Part shown: positions 33,001 through 39,000 of the stretch, piece after piece
Layout: every line of letters begins with the position of its first letter
Position numbering within the stretch: position 1 is the stretch's first letter
From: Candidatus Lustribacter sp.
GTDB taxonomy: Bacteria; Vulcanimicrobiota; Vulcanimicrobiia; Vulcanimicrobiales; Vulcanimicrobiaceae
NCBI GenBank assembly: GCA_965277805.1
Contig: OZ255842.1
Coordinates: 1,920,001 to 1,984,000, forward strand
Direction of reading: 5' to 3'
Length of the DNA stretch: 64,000 nt
Position numbers: made by a program

Positions 33001-36000
33001 CGCCCGCTGACGGCGCGGTGAGCACGCCGTTCGCGTACGCGATCCGAGCCGACTGCAGCCGCGCTTGCGCCGACGCGGCTTGACCGTTCGCGGTTTGCAG
33101 ATCGTTGCGCGCGCTCGCTACGTCAGCTTGCGCCTGCTTGAGCGCAGTACGGAGATCCGTGCCGGCGGCGGCGGCCTTCGCTTCTGCCGCACGCTGGTCG
33201 GCCTCGTCGCTTGCAAGTTGCGAGCGCGCCGCATCGGCATCCTTACCGGCGATAACGCCTGCCGCGAACAGTTGATTTTCGCGCGCGACCGCAGCGCGGT
33301 CGGCATCGACCTTGAGTTGCGCTTGACGCGCGGCCGATTGCGCCGCGATACGGCCGGTCGAGGCCGCAGGTCCACCGCTCTGGAGCGTTGCGAGTTTGTC
33401 GCCGGCGACCGCCAAACGTGCTGCAGCGGCACTGCCGGCAGCCGCGCTCGCCGATTGCACATCGGCTTGCGCGCCGCGCACGGTCGCCGCTAAGGCAGCA
33501 CGATCGAGTTCCGCCAGCGGCTGACCGGCCTGCACCGCTTCGCCGACCGACACATCGACAAAACGGACGATGCCCGCTTGCGCGAACGCGAGCTTCGCAC
33601 TGCTGCCGGCGGGCGGTCCGACGCGCCCTTGCACATTGACGCGTTCGGCGAACGTCCCCTCGTGCGCCGTGACCAACGGTACGTCCGGCGTTGCATCGCC
33701 CGCATCACCGGCAGCCGGTGCGGGCTGCCGGTGCCCGAACGTCAGTCCGGTCGCGAGCGCCACAATAACGACAAGGAGCGCGATTCCGGCGATCCACCAC
33801 CGGCGTGCACTGCTCATCGGCCGATCTCCACTTCGGTCGTCGCCGCCGCTTTCTCGAGATCGTAGCGGGCCGAGAGTTCGTCGACCACCGCTTGCGCGTA
33901 CGTCGATCGCGCGCTCGCCACTTCCAAACTCGATGACGCACCGTTCCGATAGCCGATCTCGGTTGCACGCAGTTCCGCTTCGGCCGACCGCCGTGCACGC
34001 GCCATTGCCGCCGCAGCACGCTGGGCGGCGCCCAGGGAACGCGAGGCGGCTGCGACGTCGAGCACGATCTGCCGTTCGGTCGCGTCGGTCTTGGCCTTCG
34101 CCTCAATCGCCTTGGCAGCGGCAACCGCGACGCGGTCGTGCGTGCCCGGCCCCAGCGGAATCGTCACGTTGGCATTGATCGACGGTGCATTGATCGGAAC
34201 ACCGGAGTCCGTTCCCACGACGTACCCGCCGCTGATCGTCAGCGTTGGGAACCCCGCGGCACGCGCGGAGGCAACCGCGGCTTGCGCGGCCTGCGCCAGA
34301 AGCTGCGCCGATGCAATCTCCGGGCGCAACTTGCGCGCCGCCGCGACAGACGCTTGTGGATCGAGTAACGCCGGCGCAATGGGCGGCAGATCTGCCGGCA
34401 CAGTCGCATCAAGTGCACTTGCGGCATTCGTTTCGGCACGCAACGCCTCGCCGGCGTTTTGGCCGGCCGCAACGGCTGCTTCGAGATCCGCTTGTGCTTT
34501 GGCCAGATCGACATCGCTGCGCATGACGTCCAGCGCCGGCGCGTCGCCCGTCTTCGCTCGCACGGCCGCGGCGTCGTGCTGCGCGACGGCGAGCACGAGC
34601 GCGTTGCGCCGTGCCTCGGCCACGGCTCGCGCCTTGAGCGCATCGAAATACAACCCGATAATCTTCACCTTTTCGGTATTCACTGCAGCGTTGGCGTCCG
34701 CTTGTGCAGCGGCGAGGTTCAGGGCCGCTTCGCGCACTGCCGGAGCGAACGCAACGAAATCGCCGATCGTCCACTGCAAACCTGCACTCACTTGACGCGA
34801 CGTGACGTTCGGCCCCGGCGGGTTGCCCTGCGGTACTTGAGCGTACGTCGAGACGAACGACGGCACGATGCCCGATCGCGCGGCGTCGAGCGCATACCGG
34901 CTCTCGTCGAGGCGCGCGCGCGCGCCGGCAACCTCCGGCGATGTGGCAACCGCCGCGCGTTCGGCTGCATCGAGCGAGAGATCGGCAAACACCGCAACCG
35001 CGGCCGGCGGCGCGTTCTGCGCTCGTGCCGGAAGCATTGACGCGAGCATCAACACGCCGGCCATGGCGGTCGCCGCCGGCGCATGGTGCGAAACGCGCCG
35101 CTCACCGGCAAACGCCGCGTACAGCACCGGGATGACGATGAGCGTGAAGATCGTGGCCGTCGAAAGCCCGCCGATCACCGCGATCGCCAAGGGCTTCTCC
35201 ATCTCCGCTCCCTGCCCGATGCCCAACGCCAGCGGAAAGAGGCCGCCGATCGCCGCGAGCGTGGTCATCACGATCGGCCGCAAACGGGTCCGGCCGGCAG
35301 CGACGAGCGCGTCGGACACGGTCGCACCATCAACACGCCGGCGGTTGGCAACGTCGATCAACAAAATACCGTTTTTCACCACCACGCCGACCAGGAGCAA
35401 CAAACCCATGAACGAGGAGACGTTGATGTGCGTTCCGGTGATGAATAACCCGAGCGCAACGCCGATCAGCGCCAGCGGAATCGCCGTGAGGATAACCAGC
35501 GGCAAGCGAAACGAACGGAACGTCGCGAGCATGACCGCGAACACGAGCGCGACCGCGATGGCGATCACGTTGATGAAGTCGCCGAACGATTGCGATTGCG
35601 AGAGCGCTTGGCCGCCGATCGCCGCCGTATAGCCCGGCGGCAGCGCGATCGTGCGCAGCACCTGCTGGATTCCCGCCGTCACCGAGGATAAGCTCGCGCC
35701 TTCAAAATTTGCGGTCACGTGGATCTGCAGCTGTCCGTTCTGCGTGGTGATATCGCTCGAGAGACGCCGCTTCGTGAGCGTTGCGACGTCGCCGATCGCG
35801 GCCGCGGCACCCTTCGCATAGACCGGTGTCGATGCGTCGAGCATGCCGTTATCGCCGACGCCGGCGGAGCCGACGAGCACGCGAACCGGAACCAGCGTTT
35901 GCGATCCGGGCAAGCTCGTTGCAACCGTGCCTTGACCGAGCGCCGAGACTGCGTCGCCGAGGTCGCCGGACGACATCCCGAGTGCAGCCAGCGCCGTAGC

Positions 36001-39000
36001 ACGCGGCGTGATGCGCAGCGACGGGCTATCGTATGTGACGCCGCTGGATGCATCGACAACGCCTTTGACGTTGCCGATCTGGTTCGCGATGTGCGTGGCA
36101 AGATCGATGAGCGTCTGTTGCTCGGGGCCTTGGACCACGATCTCGATCGGCGCGGGTGTGCCGGAAAGATCGTTGATCAAGTCCTCGAGAATCTGGTGGA
36201 AATCGTAGAGCGCCGACGGCACGGCCCCGCTGAGCTGGTCGCGCAAGCGCGCGCTGACCTCATCATACCCCGCACGTTGACTTGCAGGACGCAAACGCAC
36301 GCGCAACAGTCCGGCGTTGGGCGGTGTCGGTGAGAGGCCGTTGGAATCGATGCCCGTCAAGCGTCCGACCTCGGCCACCGCCGGATCGGCGATGACGATT
36401 CGTTCCATGCGCGTCGCGGCGGCGTCACTTGCTTGCAGCGTGGTGCCGACCGGCAGCGTATACGCGATTTCGAACTGGCCTTCGTCCATTTTCGGTAAGA
36501 AATCGCTCGGCAAGCGCGCAAGCAATGCGACGGTAACGATCAGCACGCCGGCCGAACCCGCCGCAACGATCGCGCGGTGCACGAGTGCCCAGCGTAACAG
36601 CCCTTCGTAGCGGCCGAGAAACACGCCGATCGAATCGCGACGGCTCGCGTGCTCCGTCTCGCGGCTCAGCAGCGCGCGCGCCACGATCGGAGCAATGAAG
36701 AGCGCGAGCCCAAGTGAAACGATCAGCGAGGCCGCCAGCGTAAAGGCCAGGGCGCGGAAGAAAAACCCCGTGACGCCGGTCAACAGCGCCAGCGGCAGAA
36801 AGACGACGACCGTCGTCGTGGTGGAGGCAATCATCGCCGCCGCGAGCTGATTCATCGAGAGCGCAATCGTTTCGTCGAGCGACCGTTCGGGAAACTCGCG
36901 GCGATTGCGCGCGATGTTTTCGATCACCACGATCGCGTCGTCGATGATCAGCCCCACCGCAACGGCCAAACCGCCGACGCTCATCAGGTTGAGGGTCTGG
37001 CCGGTCAGTTGCAGGGCCAGGAGCGCGATGGCCATCGCAAGCGGGATGACGGCGGCGGCAACGAGCGTCAGCCGGAAATTCCGCAGGAACGCATAGATGA
37101 CGACGATCGCAAGCAATGCACCGAGCAGGATCGCGTCACGCAGCGCTTGCTGGGAGGCCACGATCAGCGTCGTCTGATCCCAGAACGCCGTGAGCGTAAT
37201 GTCACGCGGCAAGCGCGGCACGACGGCGTCCAAACGCGCGCGAAACGCGGACGCCATCTTGACCGTGTCCGCACCCGGCAACGCATAGGCGTTGACGATC
37301 ACCGCATGATGGCCGTTGATGGAGACCTGGTCGCTTACGGGCGAAACGCCGAGCTCGATCGTGCCCAAACTCGAGAGCGGTACCGACGCGCCGTTCTTCT
37401 CCGGCACTTGTACTGCGCCAAGCGAGGCCCGGTCCCGGAGTGCGCCGTCGATCAGCACCGCATACTTCTGGTCGTACTGTTGGGTCACGCCCGCATCCTG
37501 AACGTGATTTGCGTCGGCCAGCGCACGGCTGACGTCCGCAGCGCCGATGCCCGCTGCGGCGAGTTGCGCCGGGTCGAGCGTGACGTGAAACTCGCTCGCC
37601 GGTCCGCCGGTAACCAGGAGCTGGCCCAAGCCCGGTGCGCCGTAGAGCTTCGGGACAATTTGCGCAATCGCTATCTCGCGCAGCACCGCTTGCGAGAGAT
37701 CGTCCGACGTGAGCGCATATGACAGCACCGGCTCGCGATTCGGGTTCACGATCACGGCGACGATGCTCAGCGCGGCCGGCGTGCCTGACCGCGCTTGCGC
37801 GATCGCCTGGTTCACAAAATTCAGGTCGGCTTGCGGGTCGGTCGAAGGCGCGAATGAAACGAAGAGCTCCGCCGAGCCTTGACTCGAGGTCGCCACGACG
37901 CTCGCGACCGACGGCAATGTTTGGAAGCTTTGTTCGAGCGGTCGTGTGACCGCTACGCGGACCTGGTCGGGCGGGAGGTCGCCGACGTCGGCCACGACAT
38001 CGATGCGAGCGAAGCTCATGTTGGGGAAGATGCTTTGCGGCGCCGTCAAAAATGCGCGAACGCCCAACAGCGCCAACACAAGCACCACGAAGACGATGAC
38101 CTTCCGGTTGCGCAGCGCAAACCGTGCAAGATTCAACGGCGACGACCCGGAACCGGCATTTGCATGTAGTTTCCCCTGGAAACATGACAGCCCTGGAAAC
38201 ATGACAGGAGAATGAACGCTGAAGCTTCTGGTCGTTGAGGACGATGCGGCCCTTCGCGACGTGCTGCGGCGGGCGCTTGAAGAAACGGGGCATATCGTCG
38301 ACACCGCCGCCGACGGCGCAACCGCCGAGCTGATGGGTGCCGACGACTCGTACGATGCGATCGTCCTCGATGTGATGCTGCCCGGCCGCGATGGAATCGC
38401 CGTCGTCGGCGCGTTACGCGAGCTCGGCGTCGGTACGCCGGTGTTGATGTTGACGGCACGTATCACCGAAGAGGACGTCGTCAAGGGTCTCGATGCCGGT
38501 GCGGACGACTACCTGCGCAAGCCGTTCGGCATCGCCGAATTGCAGGCGCGATTGCGCTCACTCTCCCGCCGCGAACCACGCCAGCGGCCCGCGCCCATGG
38601 CGTTCGGCGGAATCGTTTACGATCCGATCTCGCTGCATGCAACCCGCAACGGCCGCCGACTCGATCTCACCCATCGCGAAGCGATCTTCCTCGAGTATTT
38701 TCTGCGCAACGCCGGTCGCGCGCTTTCGCGCGAAATGATCGCGTCGGCGCTGTGGCCGTCGGAGAGCGAGATCGGATCCAACGTGATCGACGTGTACATC
38801 CGGCGCTTACGCTCGAAGCTCGACGCTCCCGGCGAACCGCCCGTGCTGCACACGGTTCGCGGCGTCGGTTACCGGATGGGCGACCGGTGACCAACCGAAT
38901 GGCGTTCGGAACACGCCTGACCGTGACATACACGGCGATCCTCGCGCTGGCGATCGTCGTGCTTGGAACGGTCGCGTTCGCCGCGGTGCGCATCGCGCTG

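Follow-up and report, generated by a model that had tools for sequence, protein, structure and literature searches.

An RND efflux permease joined in frame to its outer membrane factor, with the channel's signal peptide at the junction, in Candidatus Lustribacter sp.

Gene content of the locus and the two halves of the fused protein

We analyzed a stretch of 64,000 nucleotides (the window) from a genome of Candidatus Lustribacter sp. (G000). A gene on its reverse strand encodes an RND permease and, in the same frame, an outer membrane factor (OMF) (Table 1). The frame is open from 33814 to 38484, extending upstream of the TTG taken as the start; an alternative ATG lies at 38202, and the related genomes G004 and G005 have an ATG where G000 has this TTG. 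The TGA of the fused gene overlaps the ATG of the following gene as ATGA, with a GGAG 9 nt upstream of this ATG. That following gene had been described in an earlier note as the adaptor, in agreement with its TIGR01730 score above cut-off. The divergent OmpR-type two-component system likely regulates the pump operon; similar two-component neighbors were found at related loci. A TonB-dependent receptor-like gene is also present within the window.

Table 1. Positions of the features in the window.
Feature	Position	Strand	Remarks
Periplasmic adaptor (MFP) gene	32459..33817	-	TIGR01730, 110.5 bits (cut-off 94.9)
Fused RND permease-OMF gene	33814..38136	-	TTG start at 38136; 1,440 codons and a stop
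RND permease part, residues 1-1011	35104..38136	-	12 hydrophobic spans arranged as in AcrB; Pfam match
Basic n-region, residues 1012-1018 (ERRVSHH)	35083..35103	-	Predicted cytoplasmic, directly after TM12
h-region, residues 1019-1036	35029..35082	-	Predicted 13th span, inside to outside
A-R-A, residues 1037-1039	35020..35028	-	Predicted signal peptidase I site
Predicted mature OMF, residues 1040-1440 (401 aa)	33817..35019	-	Complete TolC-type protomer
OmpR-type response regulator, then HAMP/HisKA histidine kinase	38261..40266	+	Divergent; ORF limits, true starts uncertain

Profile searches were performed with the 1,556-residue read-through of the frame, and the numbering was converted to that of the 1,440-residue protein. 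Pfam PF00873 (ACR_tran) matched residues 4-1009 (120-1125 of the read-through) at full length, covering model positions 2-1020 of 1021 with 674 bits and an E value of 4e-202. A simple Kyte-Doolittle scan at a threshold of 1.7, which is not a topology predictor, located hydropathy peaks 1-6 at residues ~10-34, 330-354, 354-379, 381-409, 431-460 and 457-491, and peaks 7-12 at ~517-547, 849-878, 875-904, 903-930, 954-973 and 983-1012. The main peaks of these 12 spans range from 2.04 to 2.89, all above the threshold, and TM1 and TM7 are each followed by a large periplasmic loop. TM4 carries an acidic pair, D399/D400, within GLIIDDAIVVIEN; the pair is conserved without exception in 43 fused relatives, and we take it to be the equivalent of the AcrB proton-relay pair D407/D408. 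Scores against NCBIfam RND_permease_2 (535.7 bits) and CusA/CzcA TIGR00914 (438 bits) fell below the respective cut-offs of 1250 and 701.45. By score, the permease falls outside these named RND subfamilies and is assigned to no substrate class, and the 'CzcA' labels from JGI receive no support.

The C-terminal part matched both repeats of Pfam PF02321 (OEP; E 8e-42). An AlphaFold model of the channel (pLDDT 87.2) shows the repeat topology of four strands and long helical hairpins, twice, with the ordered fold beginning at V1047, 7 residues beyond the predicted cut. Foldseek aligned this model with TolC, CmeC, OprM, CusC and VceC (E 1e-16 to 1e-14; target-normalized TM 0.66-0.77; 404-434 aligned columns). 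The NCBIfam model for TolC of type I secretion, TIGR01844, matched at residues 1053-1432 (1169-1548 of the read-through) with 88.9 bits, under its cut-off of 225.15, which places the channel in the wider OMF family, outside that subfamily model. Thus, the single ORF of 1,440 codons with pump followed by channel, and the domain limits claimed for it, were confirmed.

The fused gene is a real and complete fusion. Both halves retain the family-invariant residues, and the frame is open, as had been claimed, in G004 (1,444 aa from stop to stop; 77% identity to the G000 protein) and G005 (1,460 aa; 71%). For G003, the same claim held for the junction only: the remainder of that copy contains two frameshifts within ~100 codons and is truncated by the contig end. 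The fused copy in G051 is likewise frameshifted elsewhere in the gene.

The junction in this genome and in 91 fused sequences

Permease and channel are joined by a basic, hydrophobic, A-x-A segment (GERRVSHHAPAATAMAGVLMLASMLPARAQNAPPAAVAVFADLSL) that has the features of a Sec signal peptide: a basic n-region, an h-region (APAATAMAGVLMLASMLP), small residues at -3 and -1, and Q instead of Pro at +1. The predicted cut falls between A1039 and Q1040 (bases 35020 and 35019). In this chain the segment is not N-terminal; it begins at residue 1012 of 1440, after 12 spans, and is therefore an internal signal peptide rather than an ordinary one. Following a cytoplasmic end of TM12, as expected from AcrB topology, it would be oriented N-in, C-out, which suits signal peptidase I. 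The mean hydropathy of the h-region over 17 residues is 1.68 (summed by hand), just under the 1.7 threshold. Neither +1 nor its neighbors are Cys, so a lipobox is absent, indicating that the channel is of the non-lipidated TolC type as opposed to the OprM/NodT lipoprotein type. AlphaFold modeled the junction (model residues 49-71) with pLDDT <50 and without a helix, from an alignment with 5 fused rows. G000 encodes two tandem signal peptidase I genes (136 and 134 bits; cut-off 47) and a BamA-like frame of 932 aa (184 bits against TIGR03303; cut-off 297).

To assess conservation, we compared 91 fused sequences (79 clusters, 9 further proteins and 3 translated loci, with L002 a duplicate of P0013). 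The anatomy of n-region, h-region and A-x-A was present in 91 of 91, with at least two K/R ahead of the hydrophobic core in 89. The best-scoring site had A at -1 in 89 sequences, A or V at -3 in 87 and Q at +1 in 62; note that our home-made site scoring favors A-x-A sites and biases these counts. The motif [AV]-x-A-[QAEDST], fixed in advance, occurred in 82/91 sequences (500 shuffles averaged 37.5 and did not exceed 53), and [AV]-x-A-Q in 65/91 (shuffle mean 6.3, maximum 13), although the shuffle tests overstate independence because the sequences are related. Most of the 9 sequences without the strict motif contain near variants. A MAFFT alignment made without anchoring on the motif gave the consensus PARAQ, in which A1039 is at least 90% conserved between variable flanks. 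The conserved feature is thus the pair of small residues at -3 and -1, following P or G and the hydrophobic core. The linker between A-x-A and the start of the ordered channel has a median length of ~10 residues over the 91 rows; it is very long in a few fused proteins, P0036 and P0088 having at least 100 residues there, with many P, A, S and T.

Fused and split forms among relatives

PF00873 and PF02321 were both present in 86 of 120 protein clusters among the matches listed, 79 of these 86 being 1,380 aa or longer. The fused clusters bear the names of several Eremiobacterota genera, many come from megabase-size contigs and independent assemblies, and identity over the junction region extends from 89% down to 43%. 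The fusion also occurs in G051 and G148, both of genus g28. Contrary to the earlier note, the fusion extends beyond the genus and is widespread, long-lived and common in the phylum.

The companion claim, that other genera have two neighboring genes, was borne out by reading 24 loci (two sets of 12) at the DNA level: 18 are split, over 15 genera. In 7 of 8 split loci the pump stop and channel start overlap as ATGA or GTGA, placing the channel in the -1 frame; in G078 and G058 the overlap is TGATG. The channel leader lacks a basic residue in 6 of the same 8 loci, and many split relatives have leaders without a basic n-region and with ~9-15 hydrophobic residues. The separate canonical signal peptide reported for G023 was recovered at the DNA level. 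In G078 and G058, A-x-A|Q is part of a normal N-terminal signal peptide, and its distance from the channel fold equals that in the fused forms. On an RND tree (FastTree, with split rows under-sampled), the fused/split state changed at least 7 times, at least 6 of these changes being forced by starred branches. Such repeated switching fits with two states that give the same mature products.

A second RND-OMF fusion family (P0254, P0183, P0277-P0286, P0326) accounted for 12 of 120 clusters among the matches listed in a separate search, one of them named Candidatus Omnitrophica. Its members share the architecture and junction layout of the window's protein (basic, hydrophobic, small-x-small, short linker). 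They are only 26-33% identical to it over junction and channel, their permease end resembles unfused permeases with names from other phyla more closely (53-69%), and they form a long separate branch of the tree. Judged from these sequences, the second family probably arose independently. The retention of the channel's signal peptide at the junction, as first proposed, is seen in all 91 fused sequences and again in this probably independent family.

Proposed processing of the fused chain

In common with AcrAB-TolC, MexAB-OprM and CusCBA, the system combines a 12-span RND permease with a TM4 acidic pair, a TolC-fold channel and an adaptor from the same operon, and an OmpR-type two-component system adjoins the operon. 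In contrast to these, permease and channel form one frame joined by the channel's signal peptide, and the gene order is permease-channel, then adaptor. The split orthologues in G023, G019, G012 and G078 have orthologous permease, channel and adaptor in the same order, but as two genes with overlapping stop and start.

The closest mechanistic analogue is the FbcH cytochrome b-c1 polyprotein of Bradyrhizobium japonicum, in which one chain holds a polytopic inner-membrane protein and, behind it, the signal peptide of a periplasm-facing partner, and is processed into two subunits. The likeness is one of mechanism, not of family membership: the proteins are unrelated, and neither product of FbcH leaves the inner membrane, whereas the part released here would have to reach the outer membrane. 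Fusions within the RND superfamily and engineered pump fusions also put components of one machine in a single chain; the parts of PMC8277102 and PMC4446572 consulted give SecDF in Thermus, an AcrA-AcrZ fusion made for cryo-EM, and fused dimeric adaptors. These, however, join parts of the same compartment and need no cleavage; none links inner to outer membrane. We found no description of a pump-channel fusion in print, and the fusion-related passages of PMC4446572 and of the first part of the review PMC8277102 contain no natural permease-channel fusion.

We consider it probable, from the sequence comparisons, that the product is a polyprotein cut by signal peptidase I into a 13-helix pump and a free channel. 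With the topology modeled on AcrB homology, the permease would insert into the inner membrane through 12 spans, TM12 ending in the cytoplasm. The next 28 residues would be the Sec-type signal peptide of the channel (basic, ~15-18 hydrophobic residues, P-A-R-A), which may insert from inside to outside as a 13th span, presenting A-R-A at the periplasmic face, with the 401-residue channel drawn after it into the periplasm. A cut by signal peptidase I after A1039 would follow. As to the fate of the products, we infer that the signal peptide would stay on the pump permanently as helix 13, leaving the pump's C-terminus in the periplasm, and that the free protomer, starting at Q1040, would trimerize and enter the outer membrane through the Bam pathway; pump and channel may then reassemble with the adaptor from the next gene. 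The fusion may have originated from an ancestral stop/start overlap (ATGA, GTGA or TGATG) followed by a small frame-restoring indel. The comparative evidence supports the signal peptide as a predicted thirteenth span and cleavage site, one of the two possibilities raised in the earlier note.

The other possibility raised there was that the channel starts internally, from a codon in the junction, the long frame being incidental read-through. An in-frame ATG (M1025) indeed lies where the hydrophobic stretch begins in G000 and G003, and a Met precedes the core in 16 of the 91 fused proteins. The remaining 75 have none, and the first in-frame ATG, GTG or TTG past TM12 is a GTG in G004 and a TTG in G005, both inside the hydrophobic stretch, where initiation would leave 8-10 hydrophobic residues without a basic n-region. 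Moreover, no candidate has a Shine-Dalgarno-like motif longer than 4 nt, in contrast to the GGAG of the adaptor gene, and the full-length chain would still be made as well. We consider an internal start very improbable. Hardly more credence is due to a cut elsewhere in the junction, for example by an intramembrane or periplasmic protease. Sequence rules alone define both the enzyme and the exact bond in our proposal, but what is conserved is exactly the small-residue rule at -3/-1 after P/G and a hydrophobic core; the missing Cys at +1 excludes a lipoprotein site, and two signal peptidase I genes are present.

An uncleaved chain, with a permanent 13th span and a covalently tethered channel, would be a hard-wired two-membrane machine. 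The frame is continuous, and the linkers of P0036 and P0088 could in principle tether a channel. Solved pump structures place the N-terminal end of the OMF fold alongside the upper helical barrel, a long way from the inner membrane. Given this geometry in AcrAB-TolC, the 7-residue linker of G000, or the median of ~10 residues, spanning at most ~35 Å, would be too short for a channel in the outer membrane to remain attached. Lack of cleavage would also leave the -1/-3 conservation without explanation and would turn the repeated fused/split switches from neutral into drastic changes, and the 12 true spans are both longer and more hydrophobic than this stretch. Although a tethered chain would match the 1:1 pump:channel stoichiometry (3:6:3) given for known tripartite pumps in the part of PMC4446572 consulted, we regard it as improbable. 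An assembly indel or recent mutation that merged two genes into a non-functional product is the least credible explanation, and we give it almost no weight. One indel would suffice where ancestral genes overlap by 1-4 nt, and the copies in G003 and G051 do carry frameshifts, but the fusion stays open over ~1,440 codons in G004 and G005, at 77% and 71% identity, recurs in the at least 79 long clusters from many independent assemblies, and keeps the invariant residues in both halves.

The fusion might also be the last stage in a graded export route, in which the channel is handed over co-translationally from its inner-membrane partner. We offer this idea tentatively and regard it as rather unlikely. 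In many split relatives the channel gene starts inside the pump stop and has a weak leader, which suggests that export of the channel depends on the pump having already brought a ribosome to the translocon. In the fused forms this hand-over would be hard-wired, and the translocon that inserts TM12 would also thread the channel. Signal peptidase I would free the channel beside the pump, the two being made 1:1, while the signal peptide would remain as a functional 13th pump helix, possibly with a role like that of the small accessory subunit AcrZ. If true, such a hand-over would be a previously unrecognized way to export an outer-membrane protein.

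Domains and neighbourhood of the fused gene

At the position where the fused gene of the source genome (G000) has its TTG start, the related genomes G004 and G005 have ATG. In Pfam searches, the encoded protein aligned with ACR_tran across positions 2-1020 of the 1021-position model (674 bits) and gave two OEP matches (E 8e-42); the NCBIfam model TolC (TIGR01844) matched residues 1053-1432. A hydropathy scan of the permease part gave 12 membrane spans in the AcrB pattern. The pair D399/D400 in TM4 was invariant in 43 fused relatives; in having a D-D pair in TM4, the protein resembles AcrB-type pumps. 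The NCBIfam RND permease models scored below their subfamily cut-offs on the fused protein, and the 'CzcA' labels from JGI are not supported by these cut-offs; any substrate named for the fused pump would be one deduced from its sequence.

Residues 963-1440 were modelled with AlphaFold on a 40-row alignment. The model (mean pLDDT 87.2) was a complete TolC-type protomer, with order beginning at model residue 85 (V1047), and Foldseek aligned it over 404-434 columns with TolC, CmeC, OprM, CusC and VceC, with E values of 1e-16 to 1e-14. Because a sequence-only search against solved structures gave only weak matches to TolC and CusC (E 2.5e-06 to 1.2e-04), the identity of the channel was settled by the fold comparison. 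Tripartite efflux pumps are textbook machines of separately exported parts. Permease, channel and adaptor were each recognised here in family tests and would work as in a standard tripartite RND pump; the difference is that permease and channel form one polyprotein. Searches of open-access full text, with passages from PMC8277102, PMC4446572 and PMC11219805, brought up no account of an RND-OMF fusion in nature; the passages from the first two deal with fusions of other kinds only. The architecture is already visible in public annotation, for example as 'AcrB/outer membrane protein TolC' (JGI), where it is left uninterpreted.

Features of the fused gene and its neighbourhood
Feature	Window position	Strand	Remarks
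Fused RND permease-OMF gene	38136 (TTG start) to 33814	-	1,440 codons; open frame 38484-33814
RND adaptor	32459-33817	-	Above NCBIfam cut-off; ATG overlaps fusion TGA; GGAG 9 nt upstream
434-codon frame after adaptor	31158-32462	-	No Pfam match
17-bp tandem duplication	38174-38207	-	Perfect; two copies
Start region of response-regulator frame	~38220-38265	+	Stop directly before T-L-K-L-L-V-V-E-D-D; no ATG there
OmpR-type response regulator and histidine kinase		+	Divergent to pump operon
Phosphoesterase-family protein	40260-41321	-	Next to the receptor-like protein
TonB-dependent-receptor-like protein, 905 aa	41318-44035	-	CarboxypepD_reg, Plug, beta-barrel

The tandem duplication, with 0 copies expected by chance, sits in the short gap between the pump operon and the response regulator gene. 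There is a promoter-like site of the + strand that it overlaps, and a regulator could bind to it. Given the lack of an ATG, and a Met in the split locus L007 where the G000 response regulator has Leu, this regulator may start at CTG, after AGGAGA. The 434-codon frame has a G+C content of 0.59-0.60, against 0.68 for the pump gene. After an internal Met come a lipobox-like leader that ends in Cys and a stretch rich in Gly, and the product of the frame is possibly a lipoprotein. The TonB-dependent-receptor-like protein would be one more sign that the cell has an outer membrane.

Distribution of fused and split forms

Among 41 related genomes, the orthologue was fused in G000, G004 (77% identity) and G005 (71%). 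The earlier note had reported reading frames without stops in G003, G004 and G005. This holds for G004 and G005 and for the junction of G003; however, the fused copy of G003 (L011/L013, G003:C5:699700-703943), which is cut by a contig end, has two frameshifts within ~100 codons, around residues 830-923, reflecting either assembly indels or a decaying copy. Eight loci (L004-L010 and L012) were split, with the channel in the -1 frame, and in seven of them the TGA of the pump overlaps the ATG or GTG of the channel, the picture in L010 being unclear. Note that the genomes of L004 and L009 (G015 and G036) are unpublished and that our conclusions are independent of both loci. Programmed frameshifting, which would make split relatives fused at the protein level, was rejected: no slippery heptamer was seen by eye at the ATGA/GTGA overlaps, and even after read-through the hydrophobic stretch would be too short.

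A channel orthologue was present at E <= 1e-20 in 35 of 151 genomes sampled from the phylum, and frames of at least 1,300 aa held it in four of these (G000, G005, G051 and G148). We fetched 12 loci, including those with intermediate frames of 622-910 aa. Two were fused, in G051 and G148 of a further genus, g28; at the DNA level the other ten were split genes with chance upstream frames, and their intermediate frames were rejected as fusions. The fused locus in the complete genome of G051 (L016, G051:C1:2761100-2766800) contains a frameshift near codon 245, which accounts for the shortened annotated proteins of 1,191 and 1,209 aa in its cluster. An intact protein of 1,454 aa from another assembly, P0275, is near-identical to that of G051. 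It is also an intact member of the cluster of P0071, a protein named from the cultured species Vulcanimicrobium alpinum, whose annotated form is N-terminally truncated.

In a collection of 5.8 billion proteins, PF00873 and PF02321 occurred together in 86 of the 120 matches listed; 79 of the 86 were at least 1,380 aa long, and identity over the junction region was 43-89%. Names among the matches listed included Candidatus Lustribacter, Elarobacter, Velthaea, Eremiobacteraeota and Vulcanimicrobium alpinum. A representative library yielded eight more fused proteins at 26-33% identity, all with both domains. One of these, P0254, heads a second family, which accounted for 12 fused clusters in a separate listing of 120; one of the 12 bears the name Candidatus Omnitrophica. 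The permease end of P0254 is more similar to unfused permeases whose names come from other phyla. In the ESM Atlas, the two domains also occur together in several clusters of 1,420-1,466 aa. With this distribution, the fusion is neither an artefact nor a quirk of a single genus. The earlier view that it is confined to the genus was thus too narrow, given the two g28 genomes, several named genera and the P0254 family.

A FastTree phylogeny of the permease part was calculated from 130 rows, namely 39 split forms, which are under-sampled, and 91 fused forms (79 clusters, nine further proteins and three translated loci, with one duplicate pair). The state changed at least seven times, six changes being forced by starred branches. 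Fusion has taken place on more than one occasion, with switches between fused and split genes in both directions.

Within G000, other long frames near RND paralogues, such as one of 1,674 aa at G000:C1:1053898-1057014, were rejected as fusions because only one of three OEP loci in the genome is joined to a permease; in this GC-rich DNA the frames stay open by chance. The three OEP loci of this 5.5 Mb genome compare with 13 matches to the RND permease query, so most of its pumps must use a channel jointly or function with no dedicated channel.

The junction and the fate of the precursor

The junction consists of the end of TM12 (...IPVLYAAFAG), ERRVSHH, 18 uncharged residues (APAATAMAGVLMLASMLP), ARA, QNAPPAA and the first strand of the channel fold. 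In AcrB, TM12 ends in the cytoplasm; by homology, this would place the basic ERRVSHH stretch on the cytoplasmic side. From there the hydrophobic stretch would run outwards across the membrane and bring A-R-A to the periplasmic face, the side on which signal peptidase I is active. Its 17-residue mean hydropathy was 1.68 (hand sum), under the threshold of 1.7 in the hydropathy scan and below the main peaks of the 12 pump spans (2.04-2.89), a weakness more usual in cleavable signal peptides than in stable anchors. AlphaFold modelled the junction at low confidence, on a shallow alignment.

We examined these features in the 91 fused rows. At least two Lys or Arg preceded the hydrophobic core in 89 of them. 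At the best-scoring site, chosen by a picker that favours such sites, -1 was Ala in 89, -3 was Ala or Val in 87 and +1 was Gln in 62. The pattern [AV]-x-A-[QAEDST], declared in advance, occurred in the expected window of 82 rows, compared with a mean of 37.5 (maximum 53) in 500 composition-preserving shuffles and 50.2 (maximum 64) when only the tail was shuffled; [AV]-x-A-Q occurred in 65 rows, compared with a mean count of 6.3 (maximum 13) in the first kind of shuffle and 10.0 (maximum 18) in the second, the rows in all these comparisons being related and hence non-independent trials. The nine rows missing the broader pattern were mostly near variants. A MAFFT alignment of 43 fused proteins, made without anchoring on the motif, gave the consensus PARAQ amid unconserved flanks, with A1039 at least 90% conserved. 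By eye, the second fusion family had the same layout in 11 of the 12 junctions printed (the sequence window of P0277 began inside the stretch). In the split forms of G078 and G058, A-x-A|Q lies in an ordinary N-terminal signal peptide, at a distance to the start of the fold (FxFADLSLDAAE) equal to that in fused forms.

As the best reading of this comparative evidence, we infer that the fused precursor is cut by signal peptidase I after A-x-A. The predicted products would be a pump of 1,039 residues, retaining the signal peptide as a 13th helix, and a channel of 401 residues starting at Q1040. The earlier note had considered that the channel might instead start internally. A start inside the junction would not serve as a general explanation: in G004 and G005 the junction lacks any in-frame ATG, GTG or TTG until at least the middle of the hydrophobic stretch, 75 of the 91 fused proteins have no Met ahead of the hydrophobic core, and the Shine-Dalgarno-like motifs at candidate starts never exceed 4 nt. 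Nor does an uncut chain fit well. In assembled pumps with the geometry of solved AcrAB-TolC structures, an OMF protomer has its N-terminal end next to the upper helical barrel, a long way from the inner membrane. The linker from A-x-A to the ordered fold is 7 residues long here (median near 10 across the 91 rows), and an uncut chain would probably be too short for this position. Moreover, conservation of the -3/-1 rule would have no reason in an uncut anchor. In favour of cleavage, G000 also has two genes for signal peptidase I and one BamA-like gene, and frequent switching between fused and split genes is easy to understand if both give the same mature products. The closest mechanistic analogue known to us is FbcH, the cytochrome b-c1 polyprotein of Bradyrhizobium. 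In conclusion, the feature is real, conserved and widespread, and the proposed mechanism, in which cleavage, topology and localisation of the products are read from sequence, has strong comparative support.

The leaders of many split relatives have a different appearance. Here the channel starts inside the stop of the pump (ATGA or GTGA), and its leader lacks Lys/Arg and provides only ~9-15 hydrophobic residues ahead of the fold; by the standards of Sec signal peptides, this is unusually poor. Such leaders, whose starts are gene-finder calls, were present in six of the eight split loci (L004, L005, L007, L008, L009 and L012) and in ~16 of 35 stand-alone homologues (P0130, P0145, P0149, P0154, P0156, P0157, P0166, P0173, P0179 and others). 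At the end of L010 (G031:C65) and in P0158, the channel leader has a lipobox-like L-A-V-G-C, where fused forms have Gln at +1; the channel of this lineage may be lipidated, as in OprM.

Implications

Annotation that reads only 'efflux RND transporter permease' or 'CzcA' hides the channel half of these proteins. By what means inner pump and outer channel meet, and at which stoichiometry, is a matter of debate. The repeated switching between fused and split genes offers a natural experiment in which to study translational coupling, stoichiometry and the targeting of outer-membrane proteins, and direct tests may be possible because one family protein, P0071, is named from a cultured species. If the proposed processing is correct, a bacterial signal peptidase would cut after a 12-span protein, leaving the pump with an extra helix. 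The fusion would then be a natural polyprotein joining an inner-membrane transporter to an outer-membrane channel via an internal signal peptide, and one translation and insertion event could supply parts for both membranes.
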